From positions 1,229-65,228 of the forward strand of contig DASVCV010000007.1 in assembly GCA_036381415.1 (NCBI GenBank): a DNA stretch of 64,000 nucleotides. The letters run 5' to 3'. The DNA is from Patescibacteria group bacterium. Its GTDB lineage: Bacteria > Patescibacteriota > Microgenomatia > UBA8517. Below are positions 13,687 through 64,000 of the stretch, piece by piece. Position 1 is the stretch's first letter. Each line of letters starts with the position of its first letter. Position numbers and translations under genes: made by a program. A model generated the notes under the pieces. The model had not been told where the DNA came from, ran no database searches, and worked only from the letters and a program-made list of their open reading frames with translations.

Positions 13687-14160
13687 ATGACTGCCCTAAA
13701 AAAAGGTTTTACATTAATTGAGCTTCTAATGGTAATGGCAATAATTGCAGTTATTGCAACCTTCTTTATTACCTATTCAACAGGAGGCACAAAAAAAGCA
13801 AGAGATGCCAAAAGAGAAAGCGACATTAAGCAATATCAGAATTCACTAGAAATTTATGCAGCCAAAAACAACACTCTTTACCCTTCCAGAACCTCAGGCG
13901 TAGGAGTCCAAGCTTCTGTTACAACATGCCAAGACCTAACCCTTACAAGTTGCCCAGAAGATCCTATTAATGGAAGCAATTCAAATTATATGTATAGATA
14001 TCAGTCTGATGGTACAGGCAATGGAACAGTTACCGGAACAAGATATGTTCTGTGGGCACAGTTTGAAGGCCAAACAGGATACTGGGTAGTTTGTTCCAAT
14101 GGAAAGACAGGGATAATGGCATCAGTTACAGTTTCAACAGGTACGTGTCCTTTGCCATGA
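13687..14160 (+). CDS. Type IV pilin
   Basis: KKGFTLIELLMVMAIIAVIA. Confidence 0.8.
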   Translation: MTALKKGFTLIELLMVMAIIAVIATFFITYSTGGTKKARDAKRESDIKQYQNSLEIYAAKNNTLYPSRTSGVGVQASVTTCQDLTLTSCPEDPINGSNSNYMYRYQSDGTGNGTVTGTRYVLWAQFEGQTGYWVVCSNGKTGIMASVTVSTGTCPLP

Positions 14161-14177
14161 ATAAACAATCTATTATT

Positions 14178-14603
14178 ATGAAAAAAGGGTTCACACTCAT
14201 TGAACTTCTAGTAGTTATTACAATTATTGGAATTCTTTTAGCTATTTCAATATTTGGACTTATTGGAGCACGTGAGTCCTCTCGTGATGTCAAAAGAAAA
14301 GCAGAGCTGGAACAGATTAGATCAGGTATTGAAGTATATAAATCAGACTGTAATGTCTATCCTGCTAGTCTTGGAGCAAGTCTTGTAGGAAGTGGCTCCC
14401 CGTCAACTTGTGCAGCAACAAATGTATATATTGCTACAACTCCAGTAGATCCACTCTCTCCAGCTCGTGCTTATTCATACTATTCAAACGGCTCTACTTA
14501 TGAAGTATGTGCTAGCTTGGAAAGTGGAACAGGAAGTGTTACCTGTGGAGGATCTTCAACTTGTGGAAGTTCAACCTGCAATTACAAAGTTACAAATCCC
14601 TAA
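14178..14603 (+). CDS. Type IV pilin
   Basis: MKKGFTLIELLVVITIIGILLA. An upstream in-frame ATG at 14157 (ATGA overlap with the previous gene) is an alternative start. Confidence 0.75.
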   Translation: MKKGFTLIELLVVITIIGILLAISIFGLIGARESSRDVKRKAELEQIRSGIEVYKSDCNVYPASLGASLVGSGSPSTCAATNVYIATTPVDPLSPARAYSYYSNGSTYEVCASLESGTGSVTCGGSSTCGSSTCNYKVTNP

Positions 14604-14612
14604 ACTATATAA

Positions 14613-15506
14613 ATGGCAAACTTAAAAAGATTATCTTCTAAAAAAGATGGATACACCCTAATTGAAATACTTGTTGTGCTTGTCATCATGGGGATTTTAT
14701 TTGCAGTTGGATATGCCAACTATAGAGACTTTTCCCGTCAGCAGCTTGTTATAAATGCAATGAGAACTCTTAGAGCTGATCTAAGACTTGCTCAAGAGCA
14801 GGCAATTGAGGGAAAAAAGCCAACAGGATGCACAGGCAACTTGAGTGGCTATAAATTTACAGTTCTAAACCCTGCTTTGTACCAAATAAGTGCCGCCTGC
14901 GGCAGTGGAGACGTGGTAGTAAAGACTGTTGATGTGCCGGCAGGCATTACAATAAGTACACCTAGTTTAAATCCAATTGTTTTTAATATTTTAGGAACTG
15001 GAACAAATATTAACCAGGCAAGCCCTTCCCGTGCTGTTATTGGTTTAACTCAAACAGCAACTAATTATTTCCGTTCAATTATTGTTTACCCAAGTGGTGA
15101 GGTAAAAGAGTCGACTGAAACTCCTGATCCTGTTGCTACTCCAACTCCCACTCCAACACCACCACCAGGATCCTGGCATGCCTTAGGTACATGGACATTC
15201 GGATGCGGTACTGTTGTAGCTGTTTTTCCAACCAAAACCGCATCGTCTATCCTATTTACGAAAGTAAGTGGCGGTGGCGGAGACGGTATGATTTCATATC
15301 AGTGTTATGGCTCAAATGGAATGCAGGTACAAACAGGCGGCCTCTTTGGTGGTACCTGGCAAATTGCCCCTGGTCCCTGCGGTTGGCTAAATGGCCAGTC
15401 AACCACAATAAGTTTTGCCGAAACTACAGTTGGTCAGTTCAAAGGAGCAATCGGATGCAATGATGGAGAAACTGCAGGAGTATCAATATCCTACTATGGA
15501 CCATAA
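14613..15506 (+). CDS. Minor pilin / pseudopilin-like protein with a C-terminal globular domain
   Basis: KKDGYTLIEILVVLVIMGIL N-terminal pilin motif. PT-rich linker (PDPVATPTPTPTPPPGS) before a C-terminal domain. Confidence 0.7.
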   Translation: MANLKRLSSKKDGYTLIEILVVLVIMGILFAVGYANYRDFSRQQLVINAMRTLRADLRLAQEQAIEGKKPTGCTGNLSGYKFTVLNPALYQISAACGSGDVVVKTVDVPAGITISTPSLNPIVFNILGTGTNINQASPSRAVIGLTQTATNYFRSIIVYPSGEVKESTETPDPVATPTPTPTPPPGSWHALGTWTFGCGTVVAVFPTKTASSILFTKVSGGGGDGMISYQCYGSNGMQVQTGGLFGGTWQIAPGPCGWLNGQSTTISFAETTVGQFKGAIGCNDGETAGVSISYYGP

Positions 15507-50521: not shown

Positions 50522-51079
50522 CTATATTCCTTTATCTTTAGGTTCCCTATTAAAAGCTACTGAAAGAAAAACTGCTCCAAATTTACCCAAACGTTTAATT
50601 CCTCTTAACTCATTAAAACTTGCTTTTCTAATATCCCCTACTGTTTCATATTGATAAACTAGTCCTGAATCGCTTGACCCAAAACAGCGAAGTGCAGCAT
50701 TAATAGAAGAAATAACTAAATGAGCATCGGAGGTATCTAAATCCAGTAAGTTAAGGAGTTTAAACCACTCAGGGTATTTTTCTTTTCCTATTGGAATTGG
50801 TCTAAAAACCCTTTCATATCTTTTGCTGGCAAGATCTTCTAATCTTGCATTGTCTTCAACTTTTCCTCCAAACCCATCTCTTATCTTTACTGCCAAATCA
50901 ATAACTTCCAATTCCCTATCTACATCGCGTTCCTGCTTACTTTTTTTATCTGTTGATTTAAGGCTATATGGGAGTTTTCCTTCTTCTAATAGGCGGTCAG
51001 CAACTTCACCAAGAGTTTCTGCAGCTTCTGGATGGGTAATTTTAAGTTCTTCTAAAAACTTGCCAAGTTCAACAGCCAT
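50522..51079 (-). CDS. Hypothetical protein
   Basis: 185-aa ORF with no recognizable motif. Confidence 0.45.
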   Translation of the reverse strand: MAVELGKFLEELKITHPEAAETLGEVADRLLEEGKLPYSLKSTDKKSKQERDVDRELEVIDLAVKIRDGFGGKVEDNARLEDLASKRYERVFRPIPIGKEKYPEWFKLLNLLDLDTSDAHLVISSINAALRCFGSSDSGLVYQYETVGDIRKASFNELRGIKRLGKFGAVFLSVAFNREPKDKGI

Positions 51080-51179
51080 GAGGGCTATTATAACAAAGAC
51101 AATTTAAAATTAAATACCTAAACCTCATCCTTGACAGAATAGACTATCTAAGTGTTATCCTATCAAGGGTTAGTAATTA

Positions 51180-51572
51180 ATGGCTGTTGAAAATAGTTTA
51201 GGTAAAATAGAATCTTTTCAATCTTCTAGTTCGTTAACACCCACTTTAACCAAAGAAACTACTGTAGAAGGAAGCAAAGACAATGACGTTTGGATAAGTA
51301 ACAGGTTGCTAAATATGGTTAGAATAGTTCTTCCCACTTCTCTCCAAAACACTCTTTTCCCACATCCTAAAAATGGTGAGCTCTATTTGGGATTTGATAG
51401 TAAAGGAAAGAATGAATTTTTTCTTTACAAAGGTGATCCTAATAATCAGCTGGAAAAAGACAAGTTTGCCCAAAAGCACGGTGAAAGGTGGAGTGAACCG
51501 CTTAATGGATGGGTAGCTAAAAAAGAAGTACCTCCTTTAGCCAAAAGAATAATAAATTTTATTATTGACTAA
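51180..51572 (+). CDS. Hypothetical protein
   Basis: 130-aa ORF with no recognizable motif. Confidence 0.4.
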   Translation: MAVENSLGKIESFQSSSSLTPTLTKETTVEGSKDNDVWISNRLLNMVRIVLPTSLQNTLFPHPKNGELYLGFDSKGKNEFFLYKGDPNNQLEKDKFAQKHGERWSEPLNGWVAKKEVPPLAKRIINFIID

Positions 51573-52791
51573 AATTAATAAATCTTTCCAGGTTGTTAAC
51601 AGCACCATATGCTCTTGCTTCTTCAATTGTCACACTTGTTACAAAATTTCTTGGATCTATCCCCAAACACCTCATTAACTCTGGTGTGACCCTCTTAGAT
51701 CTTTCAGTAATATCTTCATTTGTTAGTCCAAAGCTACTTAGCTCTTTGTCAGAATCAGAATGTGCCTGGGATGGAGCCAATCTGTTAGCTGACCAATTCC
51801 ACCATGTACATGCTGAGTCTGCCGCCTCACCATATACTACTTTCCTTAACTCTAGGTATGCTGGATCAACTGAAGCTTGTGGTACATCCATAAATGGAGG
51901 ACATGCATAAAAATCTGGCTCTTTTGCATGAAGAATAGAAGAAGATGTAAATATTGTTGTTTTAACTCCCTGTGCTGCTGCAATCTGAGAAATAACTACT
52001 GCCCCTTCAAGGGTAGCAAGAGGGGCAAATACTACCAAATCTGTTAGGTGATGGTCTCCTCCATTTAACTTTCCAATCTCTGCTAGATGAGAATTAAAAG
52101 ATTCAACTATTTGCATCCCGGAAGCATATAAGTCGCATATTGCAATTACTTTGCATTTTTCTGCATCAAGACCTTCTGCCTTTAAATTCCCTGCCTGTGC
52201 TATTCTATGAAAAACATTTTTCGGATCATCATCAAAAATATGCTCAATTTTTTGTTCAGTGGTATTTACACTCATTCCAGTTAAGAGATATATAGCTTCC
52301 TGCAAGTTAACATTGGGGTTTCTAATTATGTCTGTGATAAAAATTTCTTTTTCTAAATCAGAAGGCAATATATTTATAAAATCTAATGTCTGAACTAGTT
52401 GCCTAGTTAGTTCTCTAATGTTTCTTTGCATAGGGACTCCATGGTCCATTCTTGGAGTTATAAAACCAATACTTCCATCCTCGCGAACCTTCCATCTTCC
52501 ATGAATCATGGCATTGGCCTCAGGAGTATTTACGCAAACTATTCTTGGACTTTCAATTCCTTCAGGAAAGCCGGGAATATTTAAAGTTGCAACCATTTCA
52601 GTAGATCGAAATATCTTCTCATCTTTCCCTCTTAATTTGAAAAAATTTCTGTCTCTTGATACTTCTAAATCACGATAGAAGAATGGCCCAGAAGATATTT
52701 CCATAATTTTAGGCAAATCCTCATTTCCAAATTTTCCTTCTGAAACAGTTTTAAAATCTTTTGTCCTAGCTGTTTTTATTTCAACACTCAT
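51562..52791 (-). CDS. Hypothetical protein with a possible phosphoribosyltransferase-like motif
   Basis: 409 aa. KVIAICDLYASGMQIV weakly resembles a PRPP-binding loop. Otherwise unrecognized. Confidence 0.45.
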   Translation of the reverse strand: MSVEIKTARTKDFKTVSEGKFGNEDLPKIMEISSGPFFYRDLEVSRDRNFFKLRGKDEKIFRSTEMVATLNIPGFPEGIESPRIVCVNTPEANAMIHGRWKVREDGSIGFITPRMDHGVPMQRNIRELTRQLVQTLDFINILPSDLEKEIFITDIIRNPNVNLQEAIYLLTGMSVNTTEQKIEHIFDDDPKNVFHRIAQAGNLKAEGLDAEKCKVIAICDLYASGMQIVESFNSHLAEIGKLNGGDHHLTDLVVFAPLATLEGAVVISQIAAAQGVKTTIFTSSSILHAKEPDFYACPPFMDVPQASVDPAYLELRKVVYGEAADSACTWWNWSANRLAPSQAHSDSDKELSSFGLTNEDITERSKRVTPELMRCLGIDPRNFVTSVTIEEARAYGAVNNLERFINFSQ

Positions 52792-54746: not shown

Positions 54747-54831
54747 GCCGAGGTGGTGGAATGGTAGACACGCGGGCCTTAAGAGCCCGTGCAGCAATAG
54801 CTGCGTGGAGGTTCGAGTCCTCTCCTCGGCA
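54747..54831 (+). tRNA. tRNA-Leu (anticodon TAA)
   Basis: Type II tRNA. D-arm GTG-GAATGGTAGA-CAC, anticodon loop CTTAAGA, 17-nt variable arm. Confidence 0.8.
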
Positions 54832-54842
54832 CAAGAACTTTC

Positions 54843-54915
54843 CGGGGTATGGCTCAGCTGGTAGAGCGCCTCGTTTGGGACGAGGAGGTCGCCCGTTCGA
54901 ATCGGGCTACCCCGA
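54843..54915 (+). tRNA. tRNA-Pro (anticodon TGG)
   Basis: C1:G72 acceptor CGGGGTA/TACCCCG, anticodon loop TTTGGGA, T-arm GCCCG-TTCGAAT-CGGGC. Confidence 0.8.
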
Positions 54916-54943
54916 CACAACTTTTGGTATAATACTCAAAGAA

Positions 54944-55014
54944 GCGGGTATGGTTTAATGGTAGAACAAGAGATTTCCAATCTCTTTGTGGGAGTTCGAT
55001 TCTCCCTACCCGCT
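54944..55014 (+). tRNA. tRNA-Gly (anticodon TCC)
   Basis: Acceptor GCGGGTA/TACCCGC, anticodon loop TTTCCAA, discriminator U. Confidence 0.8.
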
Positions 55015-55148
55015 CAGAAAGAAAGTCAGCGGGTCGCGCTCGGAAATGGGGCGAGCGCGAAGTTTCCGAATACACCGTATCGAAGCCCGGATTGTAATTT
55101 GGGGAGATATGACGCCTTTAAAAGAAAAAACTCGAAACGTAAAATTTT

Positions 55149-55248: not shown

Positions 55249-56364
55249 TCAAGGGTAGCTCAAAACATTTTTCAGTCTTGGATACAAGATAACATCTTTA
55301 ATGTCATCCCTACAAAGAGCCCATGCAATAAATCTTTCTACTCCAAGTCCAAATCCGGAAGTGGTCTTATAATTAGGGAGCCTTCTTAGGTTTATGTACC
55401 ATTCATACGGTTTTGAATCTAATCCCTGTCTTCTCAATGATTCATACATCTCTTCAGGATTGTTTTGTCTCTGTCCACTTCCAACAATTTCTCCACCAAA
55501 TGAACTATCTACAATTGCCGGAAATAACAAATCTGCATTTATGGCTTTATTTTCATTGTTACTGTCAGGACTCTGATAAAAAGGAACTCTGTCTCTGTCA
55601 AAACTTTTAATCCAAATCGGAGTGCCTGTTTTTAACAATTCCATTAGTTTAAGTTCACCTCTACTCGTCACATCTGAACCGTGTTCCGTTTTATTTACAA
55701 ATTCTCCAAAGCCAGCATCCTCAAGAAGTTTAATAGCTTCATCTAAAGATATTTCTTTAAGTTTGTCCGCTTTCGATAAGTCATTGAGTTTTTTAAATGA
55801 AACCTTAGAATTTGTTGTTAATAAGTCCAATATATTTGGCATTAACAAAAGTGTTTCTGAAAGAAACTTTACATAACCTTCTATTTGCGGTCTCAAATCC
55901 TTCAATTCCCCAACAATTTCGGCTTCGCAATGAAAAAATTGATTGAGATGTCTTTTATTAGGATCTTCCCCTCTCATTGAAGGTAAATAACAATATAATT
56001 TCTTGATGTTATTTAAAAGTATTGGCTCAAAACCAAATTGAGATGAATCTACCAAAAATGTATCAAGTTCTCCTAGTTTAAGACGCACCGCTTCTGAATC
56101 AGAACCAGGACCCATTGGCGAAGAAACGCTAGATGTTAACATGAATAAATCCACATTGTAGGCAGCTTGCATTTCTCCCCAATAAACATCTGATGCCAAT
56201 TTTATAAAATGTCTTAACACAACTAGAGCTTGGTAATAACCAGCCTTCGCAATATCTAAAGAATAAGTATCTTTATTATATTCAGGCAAGACGTAGTCAT
56301 CTTTATTTTTATCTGCAAATAAAGCGTCAGCTTCTTGTATTTTATTTTTTAAATCTGTTTTCAT
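55249..56364 (-). CDS. AsnRS-derived class II aminoacyl-tRNA-synthetase catalytic core lacking the anticodon-binding domain (AsnA/AS-AR-like or novel amino-acid ligase)
   Basis: SMRGEDPNKRHLNQFFHCEAEIVGE aligns to AsnRS motif 2 ([21 protein letters not shown]). GGEIVGSGQRQ aligns to GGEIIGGSQRE. Motif 3 is GFGLGVERFIAWAL..DIKDVILYPR. No N-terminal OB fold. Confidence 0.7.
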   Translation of the reverse strand: MKTDLKNKIQEADALFADKNKDDYVLPEYNKDTYSLDIAKAGYYQALVVLRHFIKLASDVYWGEMQAAYNVDLFMLTSSVSSPMGPGSDSEAVRLKLGELDTFLVDSSQFGFEPILLNNIKKLYCYLPSMRGEDPNKRHLNQFFHCEAEIVGELKDLRPQIEGYVKFLSETLLLMPNILDLLTTNSKVSFKKLNDLSKADKLKEISLDEAIKLLEDAGFGEFVNKTEHGSDVTSRGELKLMELLKTGTPIWIKSFDRDRVPFYQSPDSNNENKAINADLLFPAIVDSSFGGEIVGSGQRQNNPEEMYESLRRQGLDSKPYEWYINLRRLPNYKTTSGFGLGVERFIAWALCRDDIKDVILYPRLKNVLSYP

Positions 56365-56366
56365 AT

Positions 56367-57194
56367 TTATTTCTTTAAGAAAAATTCCTTTTCTTCAGGA
56401 TAGATGTTCTTTCTAAATAGAGCGACAAAATAAGACAGATATTTGTTATTTTCCATGAAAGCACCCATATATCCGAGCCATTTATCGTAAATTTCTTTTT
56501 TAATATCATCATCTAATTTAGCAATATGCGGTTTCTTTAAAAATAGATTTACGTAATTTTCCAAGTCTTTCTTGGTTCTATCCTCGAATTTAAATTCTTC
56601 AAAATAATACAATTCATAATCACTATTGGTGTTAAAGATCTTAAGCCAATCCTGCTTATTTAGATATTTTATTTTTGCATTAATAATCTTACTTACAGAA
56701 TTCATTACCTCTATTGGTGGCTTTTGGCTATAAAACAATTGGGTAACAGCTAAAAATCCCCATGGTTTTAAAACTCTGAAATATTCGCTTACGGCTTTGT
56801 TTTTATTGTCCATGAACGAAGTAGCGCCACCACACATTACTAAATCAAAGAAGTTGTCTTTAAAAGGGATGTTATATGCTGATCCAACTTTAAAACCTAC
56901 TCTTTTCTTTACATCTTCTGTGTCCTTGTTAAGGGTATTAATAGATTCATTTACACAGCTTTCTGAAATATCTATCCCGTAAACTTTAGATTTTGTGATA
57001 TGAGCGAATTCTAAAGAATTAAATCCGGTATTCGAACCCACATCTAATATTCTGGAGTTTTCGCCCAAAAAACTATTTTGCACAATTCTTCTAATTGAAT
57101 CCTTACCTCCAGGGCATCTATTTGTTTCTTTAATAAACGAAATAAAATCAGTATAAGACAAGGATTTTATGTACTCCGTTGTTATTTTGTTCAT
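56367..57194 (-). CDS. Class I SAM-dependent methyltransferase
   Basis: Motif I ILDVGSNTGFNS, acidic motif II YGIDISE, motif III LVMCGG. Confidence 0.7.
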   Translation of the reverse strand: MNKITTEYIKSLSYTDFISFIKETNRCPGGKDSIRRIVQNSFLGENSRILDVGSNTGFNSLEFAHITKSKVYGIDISESCVNESINTLNKDTEDVKKRVGFKVGSAYNIPFKDNFFDLVMCGGATSFMDNKNKAVSEYFRVLKPWGFLAVTQLFYSQKPPIEVMNSVSKIINAKIKYLNKQDWLKIFNTNSDYELYYFEEFKFEDRTKKDLENYVNLFLKKPHIAKLDDDIKKEIYDKWLGYMGAFMENNKYLSYFVALFRKNIYPEEKEFFLKK

Positions 57195-57267
57195 ATAACT
57201 CTTTCGTGGATATTATTATCTCACAAACCCATCATAAGCCCAAATTTAGGGCAATAGGGACATTTAT

Positions 57268-57276
57268 TGATATAAT
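57268..57276 (+). promoter_or_regulatory. Extended -10 promoter (TGATATAAT) 8 nt upstream of the kinase ATG (near-leaderless)
   Basis: Same TTGATATAAT element as upstream of tRNA-Leu(TAG). Confidence 0.35.
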
Positions 57277-57284
57277 ATCTGACA

Positions 57285-58325
57285 ATGGCGAATCTAAACA
57301 AACATGACGTTCTGTTTTTGAGCTCAAATAAGTATAAGAGTCTGGCGGTTCTTATTGAAAAAAGTTATGACTTAAAAATAGATTCTGTGGAATTTCCTTC
57401 ATTTATTTCTTTCACATCACGAAAAGCAATAATTCACACCAATAAAGGCATTTTCTTCCTCAAAGAAAAACCACAATATTCTGATGATAAATTATCAAGA
57501 GAGAAATCCGCTAGTTTCCAAAAATACGCAAGCACAAAACTAGATATTGTGCCTAAAATTTTAACCACAGTAAGTGGTCAAGACTACATCCTATGGAAAA
57601 AACGATATTTTTTCTTAACTGAATATAAGGAAGGCAGAACATATAACGGATCCGATTCTGACGTTAAAGCCATGTTAATCGCCTTACAAAAGCTAAACAA
57701 TTGTGGAAAAGATTTTGTTAGTGAAAAAGATATTTCCCAAAATATAATAAAGAAAATTGAATCTTACGAAGTCGCCTCACTTGTTCCTTTAATCGAGAAA
57801 TACATTAAATCTGATTCTGAAAAGGAAACTTATCAGCGCATACTGAAGCTTTTTGAAAAATTGAAATCTGAATATCTTGAAATTCCAAAATCAGAATATC
57901 TGATGAGCCATTCTGACTTCATTGTGTTTAATTTAATTTTTAAAAACGACAAAGTTTTGGCGATAAACGATTTTGATAATGCAAAATGTTTACCAAAGAT
58001 TCATGACTTGGCAGAATTTTTAGTTTCAGCAACCTTGCTTAATTACAATGGTTCGGTTACCAATATGAAATTGCCAGTATTACTTAATCCCGATAAGAGT
58101 AAGTTCCAAATTATTACTAAATCTTACGCAAATGATTTCTCATTAAATAAGTCCGATTTTAAACTTTTGGCTGTAGTTGCAGAAATCGTTTGGGCTTGGA
58201 CGCTTTGTCTATCAATTCTAAAAGAAGACTATACGATTTCTGATTTAAGTCCTGTTATAAGTTTACTAGAAAAGAATTATCTGTCAGGCTTAATCCGTCA
58301 AAACTTTGAACTTGAGTCGTTTTAG
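57285..58325 (+). CDS. APH/ChoK-fold small-molecule kinase (paralog 1)
   Basis: Catalytic loop HSDFIVFNL (HxDxxxxN) and a NDFDNAK metal-binding motif. Confidence 0.65.
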   Translation: MANLNKHDVLFLSSNKYKSLAVLIEKSYDLKIDSVEFPSFISFTSRKAIIHTNKGIFFLKEKPQYSDDKLSREKSASFQKYASTKLDIVPKILTTVSGQDYILWKKRYFFLTEYKEGRTYNGSDSDVKAMLIALQKLNNCGKDFVSEKDISQNIIKKIESYEVASLVPLIEKYIKSDSEKETYQRILKLFEKLKSEYLEIPKSEYLMSHSDFIVFNLIFKNDKVLAINDFDNAKCLPKIHDLAEFLVSATLLNYNGSVTNMKLPVLLNPDKSKFQIITKSYANDFSLNKSDFKLLAVVAEIVWAWTLCLSILKEDYTISDLSPVISLLEKNYLSGLIRQNFELESF

Positions 58326-58341
58326 ACTATAATCACTAAAT

Positions 58342-60024
58342 ATGAAAATATCTTTTTCAGAATTACTTCAAAAATACCTATTATCTGTAGGAATTAATAA
58401 GATGTATGGAATTGTGGGAAGAGAAGACGCTATTTTGTCATTTAATACACTAAAGGATTTTGAATTTGTATTAACTCGACATGAGATGACAGCGGGAGTT
58501 ATGGCAAGTGCTATCTCAAGCTTTACAAAAAGTCCACAAGTTTGTTTTGGAACATTAGGGCCTGGTATTACAAATTACATGACCGCGCTTGCAACAGCAA
58601 CCATGGATCGCCACCCTTTAGTTTTAATCGTGGCTCAAATGGAAACGCCATATATTATTCATAATGACATGCATCAATGCCTTGACAATGTTTCTATTGC
58701 AAAACCACTTGCTAAATATACCTATGAACTCAAAAGTCCAAAAGAACTCAAGACCGTTCTTGAGTCAGCATTTAAAGCATCGATGACTTTTCCTTTCGGT
58801 CCTTCAGTTATATCGGTACCAATTGACATCTTATCTGCTGACATAGAAATTGACCCCAAGTCAGAAATGAACCTAAACAAAGAATCAATTCTACCTTCCA
58901 CTGCTGAAGATTCAAATGTTGAGGAAATGATAAAAGAAGCAGCTAAAATCATAAAATACAGCAAAAATCCTTTAATTATAGCTGGCAATCTGGTAATTAA
59001 AGAAAAAGGATTGGGAAAGAAAATAAATGAATTTTCAAAAAGCACAAATATTCCTATGGTTACAACTTACTCAGCTAAAGGAATCATTGATAGGAATTCA
59101 AAATTAAATTATGGAGTACTAAGCTCTTATACCGATTCAGTCGTCGAACAGAGAGTTAATGAAATGATCTTTGATAAAGTAGATACAATTATCTTTTTAG
59201 GTTATGACTTATGTGAAAGACATCCTTTTGTTTGGACTAGTAATAGTGTGCCTAAAACTTTTATAAACATAAATCAATATCACAATAATATCCACAGAGC
59301 ATTAAATCCAAAAGTTAATGTAATTATGAAACTGGACAAAAGTCTATCTTTATTAAAACATCAATTAAAAGGCTATAAGAATAAAAAACTAGTCGATATG
59401 ACCAAAGTAAACAAAAAAATCGATAGTTTATTGGCAGATAAGACTGAATATAAGAACGGTATAACCCACCCTCAAGTCATGAATGCTTTGAATAATCATT
59501 ATAAAAGTGGATTTATATTAGCAAATGACATTGGGATGCATAGACACTTATCAAGTATCTTTTTTAAGAGTGCTAACCCAGAATATTATGTAACCTCAGA
59601 AGGTTTATCGTCATTTGGAACGGGTTTGGCTTTGGGTATGGGAGCCAAAATCGCAAACCCAACAAAACCTGTTGTAATGATCGCGGGCGATGGTGGATTT
59701 CATTCTAATGACGGTGACATTGAGACTGCGGTTAGGCTTGGTCTAAAGATGCTAATAATAGTTTTAAATAGCGGATCAAACGCATTAATTGAACGATATC
59801 AACTAAAAGGAAAGTATCAAAAAATAAATAAGAAAAACACATCGTTTGGTAAGGTAGACTTTGCTCTTCTTGCAAAAGCTAATGGATGTGAATCAGGAAT
59901 AGCCCACAACATAAAAGAATTAAACAAACTAATTGAAAAGGCTGATAAAATTAATGGCCCATTTCTTATCGAAGTACCAATTCATTACCCAAATCACTAC
60001 ACAAACGATCTTCCTAAAATATGA
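58342..60024 (+). CDS. Thiamine-pyrophosphate-dependent enzyme (acetolactate synthase / decarboxylase family)
   Basis: N-terminal Pyr domain (GTLGPGITNYMTALATATMDRHPLVLIVAQ). C-terminal TPP motif GDGGFHSNDGDIETAVRLGLKMLIIVLNSGSN. Confidence 0.75.
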   Translation: MKISFSELLQKYLLSVGINKMYGIVGREDAILSFNTLKDFEFVLTRHEMTAGVMASAISSFTKSPQVCFGTLGPGITNYMTALATATMDRHPLVLIVAQMETPYIIHNDMHQCLDNVSIAKPLAKYTYELKSPKELKTVLESAFKASMTFPFGPSVISVPIDILSADIEIDPKSEMNLNKESILPSTAEDSNVEEMIKEAAKIIKYSKNPLIIAGNLVIKEKGLGKKINEFSKSTNIPMVTTYSAKGIIDRNSKLNYGVLSSYTDSVVEQRVNEMIFDKVDTIIFLGYDLCERHPFVWTSNSVPKTFININQYHNNIHRALNPKVNVIMKLDKSLSLLKHQLKGYKNKKLVDMTKVNKKIDSLLADKTEYKNGITHPQVMNALNNHYKSGFILANDIGMHRHLSSIFFKSANPEYYVTSEGLSSFGTGLALGMGAKIANPTKPVVMIAGDGGFHSNDGDIETAVRLGLKMLIIVLNSGSNALIERYQLKGKYQKINKKNTSFGKVDFALLAKANGCESGIAHNIKELNKLIEKADKINGPFLIEVPIHYPNHYTNDLPKI

Positions 60025-60025
60025 A

Positions 60026-60553
60026 ATGAAATTAGTAAGCCAAAAAGAAGTTTATAAAAAAGGTAGTATTATCCTAACCGAAAAAGTTTTCCGTTCAGGA
60101 GACAAAGAAATTACAAGAGTCTCTTTAAGTTTAGGAAAAAATACCGTACTGATTATTCCTATTGGTAGGGATGGTAATTTCTATCTTGGCCAACAAAAAA
60201 GAGCCGACAATAGCAATTCTGTTTTAGAATTTCCAAATGGAGGAATAGAAAAAGATGAACGGGAATTAGACGCAGCCAAAAGAGAGCTTTCCGAGGAACT
60301 CGGCCTGGAGGGCGATATGGAATATCTGGGTGAATTTCGACCCTTTGATAATTTAGTGGATTTGAAAGTAACTGTTTTTATATGTAGAAATGCGGAAGTA
60401 CAAGATGACGTTATAAGATTAAGGCCTGATTTCTATGAAAAGATTGAAAGAAAAAGATTCAATGAAAAAGAAATTTACAATTTAATAAAGGAAGGAAAAA
60501 TCAAACACTCATATTTTCTAAGCGCACTTAGTTTATATAATTCACAAAATTAG
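60026..60553 (+). CDS. NUDIX hydrolase
   Basis: Nudix box GGIEKDERELDAAKRELSEELGL. Start is 2 nt after the TPP enzyme stop; the track ORF from 59933 is an upstream extension. Confidence 0.7.
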   Translation: MKLVSQKEVYKKGSIILTEKVFRSGDKEITRVSLSLGKNTVLIIPIGRDGNFYLGQQKRADNSNSVLEFPNGGIEKDERELDAAKRELSEELGLEGDMEYLGEFRPFDNLVDLKVTVFICRNAEVQDDVIRLRPDFYEKIERKRFNEKEIYNLIKEGKIKHSYFLSALSLYNSQN

Positions 60554-61674
60554 ATTAACTTTGGTATTTGATCTTCCATGAAGCCTATAAAACCTAAGGC
60601 GTTAAATACATCTTCGTAATTAAAATCTCCTCTAACTATTCCCAACGCCATAATCTTTGTCCAACGTATACACATCTCACCAACTAAGTCAGTTTTCTCT
60701 TTTTCTGAAAAATGTTCTGAATTAGCTTTATATCCATCTATAAAAGCTCTGGTTTTTTCAATGTTCAGTGAAGTTGCAATGGGTCTACGTAAAGTTGATG
60801 TGGCACCTGCATAGCTTAAACCGTCACAAAAAGAGAGAATTGCACCAGCAAGATCCCTTGTTCTCGGGCGAAAATTAACATTATCAAAATCATTCACAGC
60901 AATAACCTTACCCTGCTTATCATATACAAGATTAAAGGGTGCGTAATCGCCATGATTAACAATATAAGGTACGTCCCAATCTAGTTGGTCTTTATATCTG
61001 TCTACCAAAGACCGTAAAGCAGATATAGTTCTTCCTCTCCAAACGTCATTCTCTGCTCCTCTAAGCTGATCTGCCAAATCAACAAATTGCAATGCATCTT
61101 CACTTGCATGCAAATTGTGCGGATTAGAAAAACTAAATTCTTGCGACTGAGAATGCATTACACCTAATGCTTCACCAGCTCCTTGTACATCCAGTATGCT
61201 TCCGTTAAACATTCTTCCGTCTGTATATTCTGTAGTGAAAAAATATTTTTCACCGAGTCTTAAATACGAATCACCGGAAGTCGTTTGAATAATTCTTGGA
61301 ACAAAGCCAGTTCTTTCCGATAAAAATGCTTGAAATTGTGCTGATAGAGTAAGACTGTACGGAGTGCAACAATATCCTGGTTTCTCTTTAATAAAATATC
61401 TATTCTTTCCGTTATCTACAATTACTTTTCTACTTGTTGTAGAAAAAGCAGCAGATGAGTCACAGCTGATTATAGTACCCAATGAGTATTCATCAACTAA
61501 TATTTTAGCTAATGAATTACCGGGTCCTAACAGTATCATGTCTACTGAATTTAGATCTCTACCGTATACAGCAGGTCTTGTTTCTGTTGAGGCAGTAGTC
61601 GGCTGCATAACAACCACATCGTCTCCTTGAGAGCTTACAGATGCAGGTAATAATTTACTTTTATGTTCAACCAT
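60550..61674 (-). CDS. APH/ChoK-fold small-molecule kinase (paralog 2)
   Basis: HGDYAPFNLVY and VNDFDNVN. Roughly 35-40% identity to the 57285..58325 product by eye (YF.KEKP...TEY..GR..NGS). Confidence 0.65.
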   Translation of the reverse strand: MVEHKSKLLPASVSSQGDDVVVMQPTTASTETRPAVYGRDLNSVDMILLGPGNSLAKILVDEYSLGTIISCDSSAAFSTTSRKVIVDNGKNRYFIKEKPGYCCTPYSLTLSAQFQAFLSERTGFVPRIIQTTSGDSYLRLGEKYFFTTEYTDGRMFNGSILDVQGAGEALGVMHSQSQEFSFSNPHNLHASEDALQFVDLADQLRGAENDVWRGRTISALRSLVDRYKDQLDWDVPYIVNHGDYAPFNLVYDKQGKVIAVNDFDNVNFRPRTRDLAGAILSFCDGLSYAGATSTLRRPIATSLNIEKTRAFIDGYKANSEHFSEKEKTDLVGEMCIRWTKIMALGIVRGDFNYEDVFNALGFIGFMEDQIPKLI

Positions 61675-61779: not shown

Positions 61780-61935
61780 ATAAGCGTTGATGTATTAACA
61801 CTACGGAGCTTGAGGAAGAAAAGTTTAAACACTTATTAGAACCTCGCAATAAATTAAGAACCAGCTTTTGGTGGCACCTCGATAAGGCCGAAGCACGCAA
61901 ATATAGGCGTGCTTTTTTATTGGTTTATTTAAAAT
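61780..61935 (+). promoter_or_regulatory. T-box-like leader/attenuator of aspS
   Basis: UUGGUGGCACCUCG (61868-61881) resembles T-box AGGGUGGNACCGCG. A terminator hairpin aagcacgc/gcgtgctt plus T6 at 61891-61919 ends 16 nt before the ATG. Confidence 0.45.
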
Positions 61936-63348
61936 ATGAAAAGAACTTTAATCAAAGAAACAGTTAACGAAGTTGGCCGTAAAGTAAAACTTCAAGGGTG
62001 GATTAATGTTATACGTGATCACGGAAAAATAACCTTTATTGACCTGAGAGATAGAACTGGGATCATACAGTGTGTGGGAAAAGATTTACCCAAATTAAAT
62101 GCAGAGGATGTAGTTGAGATAACTGGAAAAGTAAGTGAACGACCGGAAAAACTGGTCAATAAAGAATTAGAAACTGGAAAAGTCGAACTGCAAATTGAAG
62201 AAGTAAAGGTTGTAAGTAAAGCAAAAGAATTGCCTTTTCCAATTGATACTGATGGATACGAACTTGATGAAGAGTTAAGAAATAAATACCGTTATCTTGA
62301 TTTAAGAAGACCAAGAATGGCCAGAAATATTCGTATAAGGTCAAAGGTTACACAGTTTATGAGAAATTGGTTAACAAAGCGTGACTTTGTAGAAATAGAA
62401 ACACCTATTCTAACCAAGACAACACCTGAAGGAGCAAGAGATTTTTTGGTTCCATCCCGACTTCAACATGGTAAATTTTATGCTCTTCCTCAATCTCCAC
62501 AACAATATAAACAACTTTTAATGGTTGCTGGATTTGAAAAGTACTTTCAGTTGGCTAGAGTTTTTCGAGATGAAGATCCGAGGAAAGATCGCGCATATGG
62601 TGAATTTACACAACTTGACATTGAAATGTCGTTTGTAAGTCAAGAAGATATTTTACAGATGGCTGAACAGTTATTTACAGAATTGGTAAACGAGATTTTT
62701 CCTGAAAAAAGAATTCAAAAATCTCCATGGCCGAGAATTTCCCACAAAGAAGCAAAAGAAAAATACGGCAACGATAAGCCTGATTTACGAGAGGATAAAA
62801 ATGATCCAAATGAGTTGGCGTTTTGTTGGGTAATTGATTTTCCGCTCTTTACAGAACAGACAAAAGACGATTTCTTCCACGGATCCGGAAAAGCTAAATG
62901 GGCTCCATCTCATCATATGTTTACAGCCCCTCATCCAGACGACATAAAGCTTTTGGACACCAATCCTGGTAAAGTTCGGGGTCTACAACACGATATGGTA
63001 TTAAACGGCTTTGAGGTAGGTGGGGGAAGTGTTAGGATTCATGATTCAAAAGTACAAACTAAAATATTTGATTTAATAGGCTTTTCAGAGAAACAAAAAC
63101 ATGAATTTGAGCATATGTTAAATGCTTTTACTTACGGGGTTCCTCCCCATGGTGGAATTGCCCCCGGGCTTGATAGATTTATGATGACCGTATTAGGTGA
63201 ACCTAGTGTCCGTGAAGTAATGGCCTATCCGACATCTTCTTCTGGCCAGGTTTCTGTTATGGATGCACCTAGTGAAGCAACTGAAGGACAATTGAAAGAA
63301 TTGGGAATTAAAGTAGACAAGAAAGACAAGAAAAAGACTAATGATTAA
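61936..63348 (+). CDS. aspS: Aspartyl-tRNA synthetase, short archaeal/eukaryal-type (no GAD insertion)
   Basis: 470 aa. N-terminal OB fold and class II motifs (FRDEDPRKDRAYGEFTQLDIEMSF, GGIAPGLDRFMMTVLG). Confidence 0.88.
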   Translation: MKRTLIKETVNEVGRKVKLQGWINVIRDHGKITFIDLRDRTGIIQCVGKDLPKLNAEDVVEITGKVSERPEKLVNKELETGKVELQIEEVKVVSKAKELPFPIDTDGYELDEELRNKYRYLDLRRPRMARNIRIRSKVTQFMRNWLTKRDFVEIETPILTKTTPEGARDFLVPSRLQHGKFYALPQSPQQYKQLLMVAGFEKYFQLARVFRDEDPRKDRAYGEFTQLDIEMSFVSQEDILQMAEQLFTELVNEIFPEKRIQKSPWPRISHKEAKEKYGNDKPDLREDKNDPNELAFCWVIDFPLFTEQTKDDFFHGSGKAKWAPSHHMFTAPHPDDIKLLDTNPGKVRGLQHDMVLNGFEVGGGSVRIHDSKVQTKIFDLIGFSEKQKHEFEHMLNAFTYGVPPHGGIAPGLDRFMMTVLGEPSVREVMAYPTSSSGQVSVMDAPSEATEGQLKELGIKVDKKDKKKTND

Positions 63349-64000
63349 TAATTCGAATTAGTTGTTTTTCTTTTTTAATATCAATCTCCACCGTTCCACC
63401 AATCGGAAAAGTAATTTTAGGATCAGTATGTCCAAAGTCTACATTTGCAACAATAGGCATAAGGTCCAATTCTTTTTTTGTTTTTATTATCTTTACAAGT
63501 AAATCGCTGGACATTTTACTTTCGTTTTGAAATCTTCCTATTATTAATCCTTTTACCCCGTCAAATCCCGGTTGATGAATTAAAGATTGCAAATCTCTAT
63601 CAAAATGTTTAGAATCAGATTCGGAGTCGTCCTCTACAAAAATAATTGAATCTTTCAAATTAGGCATATACTCAGTCCCTTGCAAAAGATTAAAGGTATT
63701 AAGATTTCCGCCAATAATATTTCCTTCTGTCTTTTCGCCCTCATTAATAACTAAAAATCCGTCATTACCAATAAGTTTTCGGTCATTTTGATTCTTATAC
63801 CACATATCATCACTCCACTGATTACTAGAAGTTATATCAAAAGGCTTAGTCTCAAAAAGACACTTCTTGAAATAATCAAGTGTGTAATCAAAATAAAGTT
63901 TTTGGCCGAATGAAGAATAATGTGGACCATAATATGTCATTAAACCTGACTTAACCAAAAATGCATTATTGAGAATAGTTACGTCTGAATATCCACAAAA
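63338..64000 (-). CDS. Peptidase S66 family (LD-carboxypeptidase LdcA / microcin C7 immunity MccF-like), 5' end beyond the window
   Basis: The frame stays open to the window edge. Upstream in-frame sequence contains CGYSDVTIL (S66 catalytic Ser motif GxSDxT). C-terminal VDFGHTDP supplies the His. Overlaps the aspS 3' end by 11 nt. Confidence 0.65.
   Translation of the reverse strand, partial: FCGYSDVTILNNAFLVKSGLMTYYGPHYSSFGQKLYFDYTLDYFKKCLFETKPFDITSSNQWSDDMWYKNQNDRKLIGNDGFLVINEGEKTEGNIIGGNLNTFNLLQGTEYMPNLKDSIIFVEDDSESDSKHFDRDLQSLIHQPGFDGVKGLIIGRFQNESKMSSDLLVKIIKTKKELDLMPIVANVDFGHTDPKITFPIGGTVEIDIKKEKQLIRIINH

Follow-up and report, generated by a model that had tools for sequence, protein, structure and literature searches.

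The stretch of DNA analysed here, called the window below, comprises 64,000 nt of contig DASVCV010000007.1 (assembly GCA_036381415.1) from a metagenome-assembled genome of the Patescibacteria, and the system in question is a set of enzyme genes near its end that includes a truncated ligase (LIG) derived from asparaginyl-tRNA synthetase (AsnRS). An earlier note made from the sequence had flagged positions 55249–61674 as six enzyme genes lying between a tRNA-Leu/Pro/Gly trio (54747–55015) and aspS. The list of open reading frames (ORFs) contains all six at these coordinates, and their Pfam domains (tRNA-synt_2, class I methyltransferase, APH twice, TPP_enzyme_N/M/C and NUDIX) agree with this description. 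The boundaries were nevertheless too narrow, as the unit conserved in relatives reaches past 61674 and includes aspS and a gene for an S66 peptidase, the most conserved partner of the ligase, which had been missed. The DNA from 55249 to beyond the end of the window (>64000) is one conserved block of approximately 9 kb with the following features.

55249–56364, minus strand: LIG, a truncated class IIb AsnRS-derived adenylate-forming ligase belonging to a sister family of AgnA (371 aa; PF00152).
56367–57194, minus strand: class I S-adenosylmethionine (SAM)-dependent transferase resembling MccD and AgnB1 (275 aa).
57195–57284, no strand: divergent intergenic region, with an extended −10-like box, TTGATATAAT, read from the sequence at 57267–57276.
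57285–58325, plus strand: APH-fold kinase 1 (APH1; 346 aa; PF01636), which opens the APH1-TPP-Nudix operon.
58342–60024, plus strand: thiamine diphosphate (ThDP or TPP) enzyme resembling carboxyethylarginine synthase (CEAS; 560 aa).
60026–60553, plus strand: Nudix hydrolase resembling ADP-ribose/ADP-compound pyrophosphatases (175 aa; PF00293).
60550–61674, minus strand: APH-fold kinase 2 (APH2; 374 aa; PF01636, 49 bits).
61936–63348, plus strand: aspS, encoding a bacterial-type aspartyl-tRNA synthetase (AspRS) without the GAD insertion domain (470 aa; NF001750).
63338–64000, minus strand: MccF-like S66 serine peptidase, with only its C-terminal ~220 aa inside the window (Peptidase_S66 and S66C domains).

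The peptidase gene exceeds the window and is complete (329 aa) at 1541–2530 of locus L001, where the Nudix start (ATG at 60026) is also called in the same way. As the stop codon of the SAM enzyme gene is only 2 nt from the LIG start, these two genes form one operon. APH2 is convergent with the Nudix gene and divergent from aspS.

The class II synthetase motifs of LIG (RGE..RHLNQF, GGEIVGSGQR and GFGLGVER..DVILYPR) could be read as the earlier note had described, and the adenylation motifs are intact. The only Pfam domain found was PF00152, with no OB anticodon-binding domain (PF01336), and the AlphaFold2 model (pLDDT 86), one of the checks that the note had proposed, agrees with this; its best Foldseek match was AsnRS 1x54 (TMq 0.78 over 345 columns). 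LIG shares with AsnRS and with the archaeal asparagine synthetase AS-AR the class IIb catalytic fold, motifs 2 and 3 included, but it differs from both in having no anticodon-binding domain, in scoring below every NCBIfam cutoff for AsnRS and AsnA and in its genomic context, and from AsnRS also in its phylogenetic position. A ‘novel ~130-aa N-terminal region’ claimed for it could not be upheld: the NCBIfam AsnA-type profile spans residues 21–363, AgnA-family proteins align from about residue 31–43, and only ~40 helical residues are extra.

In a search of plasmids LIG was 34% identical to AgnA (‘agrocin 84 synthetase’ of pAgK84; E = 2e-43) and 52% identical to copies on Bradyrhizobium symbiosis plasmids. 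The members of its own family (~372 aa, 50–65% identical) are annotated ‘amino acid--tRNA ligase-related protein’. A neighbour-joining tree with bootstrap was built from 254 catalytic-core columns, without the archaeal AS-AR and without Escherichia coli AsnA, the latter because runs that included it were unstable (saturated distances). In this tree the ligases of the candidate phyla radiation (CPR), Calothrix and Bradyrhizobium form one family (99% bootstrap) and the AgnA proteins of pAgK84, Xenorhabdus, Bacillus, Streptomyces and Pantoea another (99%), and the two together are separated from AsnRS/AspRS with 100% bootstrap; LIG thus belongs to a sister family and is not an AgnA ortholog. Both families have retained the ATP-binding arginines and have derived motifs in common that are missing in AsnRS (ADSxQF, RGE, PFYQ and T[SA]GFG), while LIG is distinguished from AgnA by a 7-residue insertion and by GQR where AgnA has GER. 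The interpretation of LIG as a tRNA-independent descendant of AsnRS, already put forward in the note, is supported by these comparisons.

The superfamily is small, with 93 representatives at E ≤ 1e-30 among 1.84 billion, which argues against a general housekeeping role. Its members occur fused to methyltransferase, GNAT (Acetyltransf_3), HIT and Asparaginase_2 domains. Four proteins of the representative library (P0257, P0264, P0277 and P0321; 1,049–1,569 aa) combine a carnitine-acyltransferase-like domain and Asparaginase_2, sometimes with HIT, with a C-terminal AgnA/LIG-type ligase; the methyltransferase domain fused in P0312 was not MccD-like by BLAST. Ligase matches in the phage collection (OR849060, OR844988 and others; L099 and L100) were rejected as AsnRS of ~390–430 aa, 42–50% identical to the E. 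coli and Pyrococcus horikoshii enzymes; they come from ‘UNVERIFIED_ORG’ Listeria/Staphylococcus records that are probably host DNA.

The SAM enzyme had as its best PDB match MccD (5fcd, E = 2.7e-20, residues 3–240), the next (6e-11) being nine orders of magnitude worse. It is 33% identical to AgnB1 over 274/275 aa (E = 5e-53), whose gene directly follows agnA, and 28–37% identical to methyltransferases encoded beside the ligase in Xenorhabdus, Bacillus and Streptomyces. MccD moves a 3-amino-3-carboxypropyl group from SAM onto the phosphate of microcin C, and MccE1 then decarboxylates it (PMC8323819). For the S66 peptidase the PDB matches were to Bacillus anthracis BA_5613, an ‘MccF-like’ protein (4e5s, E = 3e-115), and to characterised MccF (E = 5e-48 and 4e-38), with LdcA reaching only 1e-17 to 1e-21. 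By sequence the peptidase falls with MccF and not with LdcA, and its substrate is predicted accordingly; it is 30% identical to AgnC5 over 315 aa (E = 2e-36). In the window its gene lies on the far side of aspS, and in loci L002 and L096 it adjoins the methyltransferase–LIG pair. MccF belongs with MccH (HIT) and MccE2 (GNAT) to the immunity enzymes of microcin C (PMC8323819).

A block that combines these three proteins has a described counterpart in the agrocin 84 cluster of pAgK84 in Rhizobium rhizogenes K84, so that the statement of the note that the gene combination was not a described pathway no longer stands: the triad corresponds by homology to AgnA-AgnB1-AgnC5. Formation of the phosphoramide bond has been proposed for AgnA, whose gene lies in a cluster needed for antibiotic production; clusters of this kind had been described only in K84, a single Ensifer strain and ~19 actinobacteria (PMC8323819). 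The gene order on pAgK84 is agnA, agnB1 and agnB2, the last encoding a resistant LeuRS, and the plasmid contains in addition an S66 gene (agnC5), two Nudix genes, PPDK-like kinases and other SAM enzymes. The window has in common with it an AgnA-type ligase directly beside an MccD-like SAM enzyme, an ‘MccF-like’ S66 peptidase, a Nudix gene, kinases and an aminoacyl-tRNA synthetase gene. In contrast to agrocin 84 it lacks AgnC1–C4, C6 and C7, the PPDK-like AgnD and the exporter AgnG, and it adds the CEAS-like enzyme and APH-fold kinases; its synthetase is AspRS and not LeuRS, and where AgnB2 is a resistant copy, aspS in the window is known only as a gene at the edge of the block. When 22 pAgK84 proteins were compared with the window by tblastn, only AgnA, AgnB1 and AgnC5 gave matches.

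With microcin C the window shares the MccD-like transferase and the MccF-clade peptidase, and related loci and fusions contribute counterparts of further Mcc proteins, namely HIT (MccH class), Acetyltransf_3 GNAT (MccE2 class) and a type III pyridoxal phosphate (PLP) decarboxylase (MccE1 class). Microcin C targets AspRS, which matches the link of the block with aspS. What the window lacks by comparison are the MccA peptide, the ThiF-like MccB and the MccC exporter; Pfam found no ThiF/E1 domain in the block proteins, and no precursor peptide was identified. As the bond-forming enzyme would be a ligase derived from an aminoacyl-tRNA synthetase, the product, whatever it is, would not be built on a ribosomal peptide. 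A third cluster of related content lies on the megaplasmid of Xenorhabdus bovienii CS03 (L091, 8866–18939). Its genes for an AsnA-like ligase, an MccD-like methyltransferase (37% identical) and S66 lie in this order and are followed by those for a nucleoside phosphorylase, VOC and GloA proteins, an additional LeuRS (leuS), an aminoacyl-tRNA synthetase-related protein and an MFS transporter; unlike the window, it has no CEAS-like, APH or Nudix genes, and it is apparently an agrocin-84-like cluster that has not been described. The window block is a CPR variant of the agrocin 84/microcin C kind, with only partial membership of the agn type.

The neighbourhood census that the note had called for was carried out with one genome per species, which gave 80 loci; neighbours were counted over 81 loci and clustered from all genes within 6 kb of the ligase with no prior assumptions. 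The loci span Paceibacterota, Gracilibacteria, Moraniibacteriota, Magasanikbacteria, Shapirobacteria, Kaiserbacteria and other CPR, together with one Calothrix plasmid. An S66 peptidase gene was found in 72 of the 81 loci and a class I SAM-dependent transferase in 70, the MccD-like subfamily accounting for 22 loci and unrelated class I methyltransferases for the rest. The ligase is linked to the other enzyme types of the window elsewhere too (APH in 10 loci, Nudix in four and TPP in four). Three arrangements could be distinguished. Arrangement A consists of a methyltransferase, a paralog of the AlaRS core (‘X’, in 24 loci; E = 1e-16 to PDB 1riq), S66 and the ligase. Arrangement B consists of the ligase, a methyltransferase (sometimes two), S66 and, on the opposite strand, a 385-aa protein (‘c3’); a type III PLP decarboxylase or LysRS-like paralog is also present in some of these loci. 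Arrangement C, to which the window belongs, has one or more APH kinases and Nudix plus either S-adenosylmethionine decarboxylase (AdoMetDC) or the TPP enzyme. APH genes accompany the MccD-like version of the module in 9/10 loci (Fisher p = 1.6e-5, uncorrected for phylogeny), as do decarboxylase-type enzymes (PLP, AdoMetDC or TPP; 9/10, p = 1.6e-5, likewise uncorrected) and Nudix genes (4/4).

In the closest relatives (L094 and L095; 83–85% LIG identity) and in a lineage at 63% identity (L096) the block is kept as S66-aspS-APH2-Nudix-TPP-APH1-methyltransferase-LIG, except that in L096 S66 adjoins the methyltransferase–LIG pair instead; a GNAT gene (L094) or a HIT gene (L096) borders it, and the flanks outside it differ. 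The family as a whole is patchy, with plasmid copies in unrelated phyla, and the same triad of ligase, SAM enzyme and S66 is present on the X. bovienii megaplasmid and on Streptomyces, Bacillus and Bradyrhizobium plasmids; the Streptomyces order is ligase, methyltransferase, a class IIa aminoacyl-tRNA synthetase-like protein and S66. We found no description of the module in CPR in the literature that was searched.

Several other loci deserve mention. In L059 (11841–13919, minus strand) X (51% identical to X of L011) and S66 (65% identity) are fused in a protein of 692 aa, which links the two activities. X and c3, the latter with a weak HisZ/HisRS-like motif, are unrelated to each other and neither is encoded in the window; both were considered as equivalents of AgnC1, of the Xenorhabdus synthetase-related protein and of the Streptomyces class IIa-like protein, but no equivalence is claimed because profile comparison gave no detectable similarity. 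The PLP decarboxylase (c20) gave only superfamily-level matches to plasmid proteins, including 23% identity to Salmonella MccE-like fusions, and this was not taken as specific evidence. Divergent LysRS-like paralogs (430–460 aa; 276 bits, below the LysRS cutoff of 468) directly follow S66 in L020 (12946–14334), L026 (13153–14448), L046 (12990–14312) and L052 (2622–3935), in L026 in tandem with a canonical LysRS; they may be resistance copies or further ligases. On Bradyrhizobium elkanii/barranii symbiosis plasmids (L082, 7979–11764) the order is S66, ligase (52%), HAD hydrolase and class I methyltransferase, adjoining nodU and with IS elements on the flanks, and a module of the CPR type is thus mobile outside CPR. 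On at least six Pantoea agglomerans plasmids (L085, 8407–11230) a 531-aa fusion of an Acetyltransf_3 GNAT with an AgnA-family ligase is followed by an MFS transporter.

The remaining enzymes of the block were classified in the same way. Both kinases have the HxDxxxxN and DFD motifs and they are paralogs (29% identity, E = 1e-40), as the note had said; APH2 had no relative at E < 0.01 among PDB sequences, and it lies beside aspS in L094–L096 too. The APH kinases are not proposed to form nitrogen–phosphorus (N–P) bonds because the kinases known to do so are PPDK-like and not APH-fold. For the TPP enzyme the label ‘ALS-family’ was too generic: it matches CEAS (1upa) with E = 3.7e-111 and ~37% identity, compared with 1e-60 for the best acetolactate synthase (ALS), and the best NCBIfam ALS model gave 303 bits against a cutoff of 509. 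Its homologs at 65–88% identity occur only on CPR contigs with the same block, and remoter ones in other secondary-metabolite-like contexts. CEAS, an enzyme of secondary metabolism which couples glyceraldehyde-3-phosphate with the alpha-amine of arginine (PMC6097109), has the same three-domain ThDP architecture, but its partners in the clavulanate pathway (beta-lactam synthetase, clavaminate synthase and amidinohydrolase) are absent from the window, whereas an Anoxybacillus locus (L089) has such partners. The Nudix protein is NudE-like (40.7 bits), with ADP-ribose pyrophosphatase 1v8i as its PDB match (E = 5e-10). In a Candidatus Levybacteria locus (L087, 5746–11336) an adenylosuccinate-synthetase-like gene, a CEAS-like TPP enzyme (44% identical), a 461-aa protein and an APH kinase have an operon-like arrangement, and this set is possibly another nucleotide–amino-acid conjugate pathway in CPR.

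The aspS product scores 602 bits with NF001750 (cutoff 443), but the 590-position profile is matched in two stretches, from which it follows that the GAD domain is missing; it is a genuine bacterial AspRS. The syntenic aspS of L096 encodes 575 aa with the GAD domain present. The gene is found in the same position in L094, L095 and L096, and in L045 it adjoins LIG. Whether counted as part of the block or as a gene beside it, aspS is conserved, possibly as the target or as a co-selected gene. Full-length aminoacyl-tRNA synthetase genes near the module are, as a group, not clearly enriched over chance, and only the adjacency of aspS within the sub-lineage of the window is taken as suggestive.

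The reading that we prefer, and in which we have about even confidence, is that the block is a biosynthesis and self-protection cluster for an aminoacyl-nucleotide of the Asp/Asn type that mimics an aminoacyl-adenylate; that the genes are functionally one set, indicative of a small aminoacyl- or nucleotide-linked metabolite as first suggested, is supported. The sequences themselves show the homologies, synteny, fusions and co-occurrence and the intact adenylation motifs. From the known or proposed activities of the homologs we infer the substrate, the N–P chemistry, the tailoring roles and the target as follows. LIG would bind ATP and an acid of the Asp/Asn type and, like AgnA, couple the acyl or amide moiety to the nucleotide, probably as a non-hydrolysable N-acyl phosphoramidate. 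The MccD/AgnB1-like enzyme, translationally linked to LIG, would then decorate the conjugate, by 3-amino-3-carboxypropyl transfer as in MccD or by methyl transfer. To judge from family chemistry and recurrent co-occurrence, APH2 and the products of the APH1-TPP-Nudix operon may modify both the amino-acid and the nucleotide portion; possible reactions are N-carboxyethylation with glyceraldehyde-3-phosphate, phosphorylation and the trimming of pyrophosphate. By analogy with MccF, the S66 peptidase would cleave the aminoacyl-N bond and serve in self-immunity or processing. AspRS is a candidate for the target, as hinted by the conserved position of aspS next to these genes.

Production of an aminoacyl-adenylate mimic would mean that ultra-reduced episymbionts possess a rare specialised, antibiotic-like metabolism, would suggest a means by which they disturb the translation of hosts or competitors, and would provide a compact two- or three-gene system in which to resolve how ligases derived from aminoacyl-tRNA synthetases form N-acyl-phosphoramidate nucleotides. 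A more specific version, which is possible but which we hold only tentatively, is that CPR and some cyanobacterial and rhizobial plasmids encode a ribosome-independent route to a microcin C-like warhead: the AsnRS-derived ligase would turn free Asn/Asp and ATP into a non-hydrolysable (iso)asparaginyl- or aspartyl-phosphoramidate nucleotide, the MccD-like, CEAS-like and kinase enzymes would decorate it, the MccF-like peptidase would restrain it, and minimal-genome episymbionts would use it to inhibit the AspRS of hosts or competitors. If so, CPR would have their first widespread pathway of the antibiotic type, and the AgnA family would gain a biochemical function. Whatever the product, a well-conserved sister module of the AgnA-AgnB1-AgnC5 core exists in at least 100 species representatives from many lineages of CPR, and plasmids of Calothrix and Bradyrhizobium carry it as well; three misleading annotations are corrected (‘asparagine synthetase A’, ‘acetolactate synthase’ and ‘LD-carboxypeptidase’).

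A number of observations weigh against a biosynthetic cluster. The roles of AgnA and AgnB1 are themselves predictions, no member of the AgnA family having been characterised biochemically, and only three of the ~22 pAgK84 proteins have homologs in the window. By Pfam and by tblastn of the window the block has no MccA/MccB, no exporter and no PPDK-type N–P kinase. Most CPR loci have a methyltransferase that is not MccD-like and other partners (the AlaRS-like X, or c3); the p-values for co-occurrence take no account of phylogeny; and aspS adjacency is confined to three or four independent lineages. The ligase is moreover 50–65% conserved over distant CPR classes, which is unusually high for a secondary-metabolite gene and comparable to AspRS in the same loci.

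There are other readings of the block. It might serve only for detoxification or immunity, S66 (with HIT or GNAT in relatives) destroying exogenous aminoacyl-adenylate mimics; the ligase and SAM enzyme would then act on related compounds by modification or repair, and no toxin would be built. Stand-alone MccF homologs do give resistance to microcin C (PMC8323819), and two proteins of this stand-alone kind, BA_5613 and Lmo1638, are close relatives of the S66 peptidase of the window. In relatives the block has a GNAT or HIT gene at its border, and neither an exporter nor a precursor gene lies within it. We nevertheless consider this unlikely, as the sister enzyme AgnA sits in a cluster that makes an antibiotic, the tight ligase–transferase operon is kept in clusters with tailoring enzymes, exporters and resistant synthetases, and the CEAS-like enzyme and two kinases are hard to account for. 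We give no more weight to a housekeeping modification, in which LIG would aminoacylate a macromolecule or envelope precursor, as the LysRS paralog EpmA does with EF-P, and S66 would be an LD-carboxypeptidase acting on peptidoglycan stem peptides. The very strong conservation of the ligase over CPR classes would fit this, as would the lack of an exporter, the other truncated synthetase paralogs in the module (AlaRS-like and LysRS-like) and the annotation of S66 as muramoyltetrapeptide carboxypeptidase, although the latter is sub-threshold (105 vs 378). It is opposed by the rarity of the family (~104/185,579 species in a LIG pattern scan, and few 50%-identity clusters), by the plasmid copies in unrelated phyla, by the much greater proximity of S66 to MccF than to LdcA and by the HIT, GNAT and Asparaginase_2 fusion partners, which point to small-molecule nucleotide chemistry.

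The least probable of the functional alternatives, in our view very unlikely, is that LIG is an archaeal-type asparagine synthetase supplying Asn and that its neighbours are unrelated to it. Its best NCBIfam match is indeed an ‘asparagine synthetase A’ model (PRK06462.1-5), and PGAP gives AgnA-family proteins this label, but the score of 155 bits is far under the cutoff of 389 (asnS models gave 142–143 bits with cutoffs of 343–414), the Pyrococcus abyssi AS-AR structure 3p8t was matched only in part (E = 1.6e-11, compared with 1e-36 for AsnRS), and identity to E. coli AsnA is 14–22%, so that the ligase does not group with housekeeping AsnA. The conserved synteny with S66 and the SAM transferase, and the existence of fusions, also speak against it.

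The origin of the block is a separate matter. It had been proposed to be a recently acquired low-GC island placed beside the tRNA trio, with composition and tRNA adjacency as the grounds. The GC dip is real (0.333 compared with 0.369 in the rest of the window), but the calculation proposed in the note shows codon usage to be indistinguishable from the rest: GC content at third codon positions is 0.237–0.301 in the region (0.248 ± 0.035 in other genes), and the Karlin codon bias of the region genes is within 0.4–1.2 standard deviations of other genes, which is typical of the window. The fraction of K/N/I/F/Y is 0.32–0.42 in the region (0.278 ± 0.035 elsewhere) and is unusually high in the methyltransferase, APH1, TPP and Nudix proteins, so that the dip, at codon positions 1 and 2, stems from amino-acid composition and not from codon usage. 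Of the features of a tRNA-targeted island (an integrase, tRNA-derived direct repeats and atypical codon usage) none was found in the window, where no integrase was seen among the ORFs by Pfam and no att-like repeat was detected; neither composition nor the nearby tRNAs thus speak for a recent transfer, and there is no evidence of tRNA-targeted integration. The trio is specific to the window, being missing from the same junction in L094–L096, and tRNAs are dense here (14 in 64 kb). A core gene, aspS, also lies inside the block. A recent acquisition is therefore improbable, although the variable flanks in relatives and the plasmid-borne members of the family would be compatible with it, as would a serine recombinase (Resolvase/Recombinase domains) at 13955–15244 (minus strand) of L095. 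In this relative with 85% identity the recombinase gene is ~3 kb away from that end of the block at which the ligase lies, and no other gene of a mobility type was seen close to the block in the lineage.

Elsewhere in the window a 409-aa ORF (51562–52791, minus strand) and two smaller ones (50522–51572) beside pyrG had no Pfam or NCBIfam match. PADLOC returned only generic methyltransferase and Nudix matches for the region, and an Rfam search gave no match besides the three tRNAs. The near-leaderless promoter suggested in the note stands as far as the TTGATATAAT box is concerned, which lies 8 nt upstream of the APH1 ATG at 57285; the box is no more than a match to the consensus, and such promoter-like matches are no commoner in the region than in shuffled sequences (39 vs 34 ± 7). 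A terminator-like hairpin at 61890–61925 on the plus strand (9 bp stem with five GC pairs, followed by a T-run) lies ~10–20 nt before the aspS start; it has no plus-strand gene upstream and no Rfam match, and could be a leader, an attenuator or a bidirectional element.

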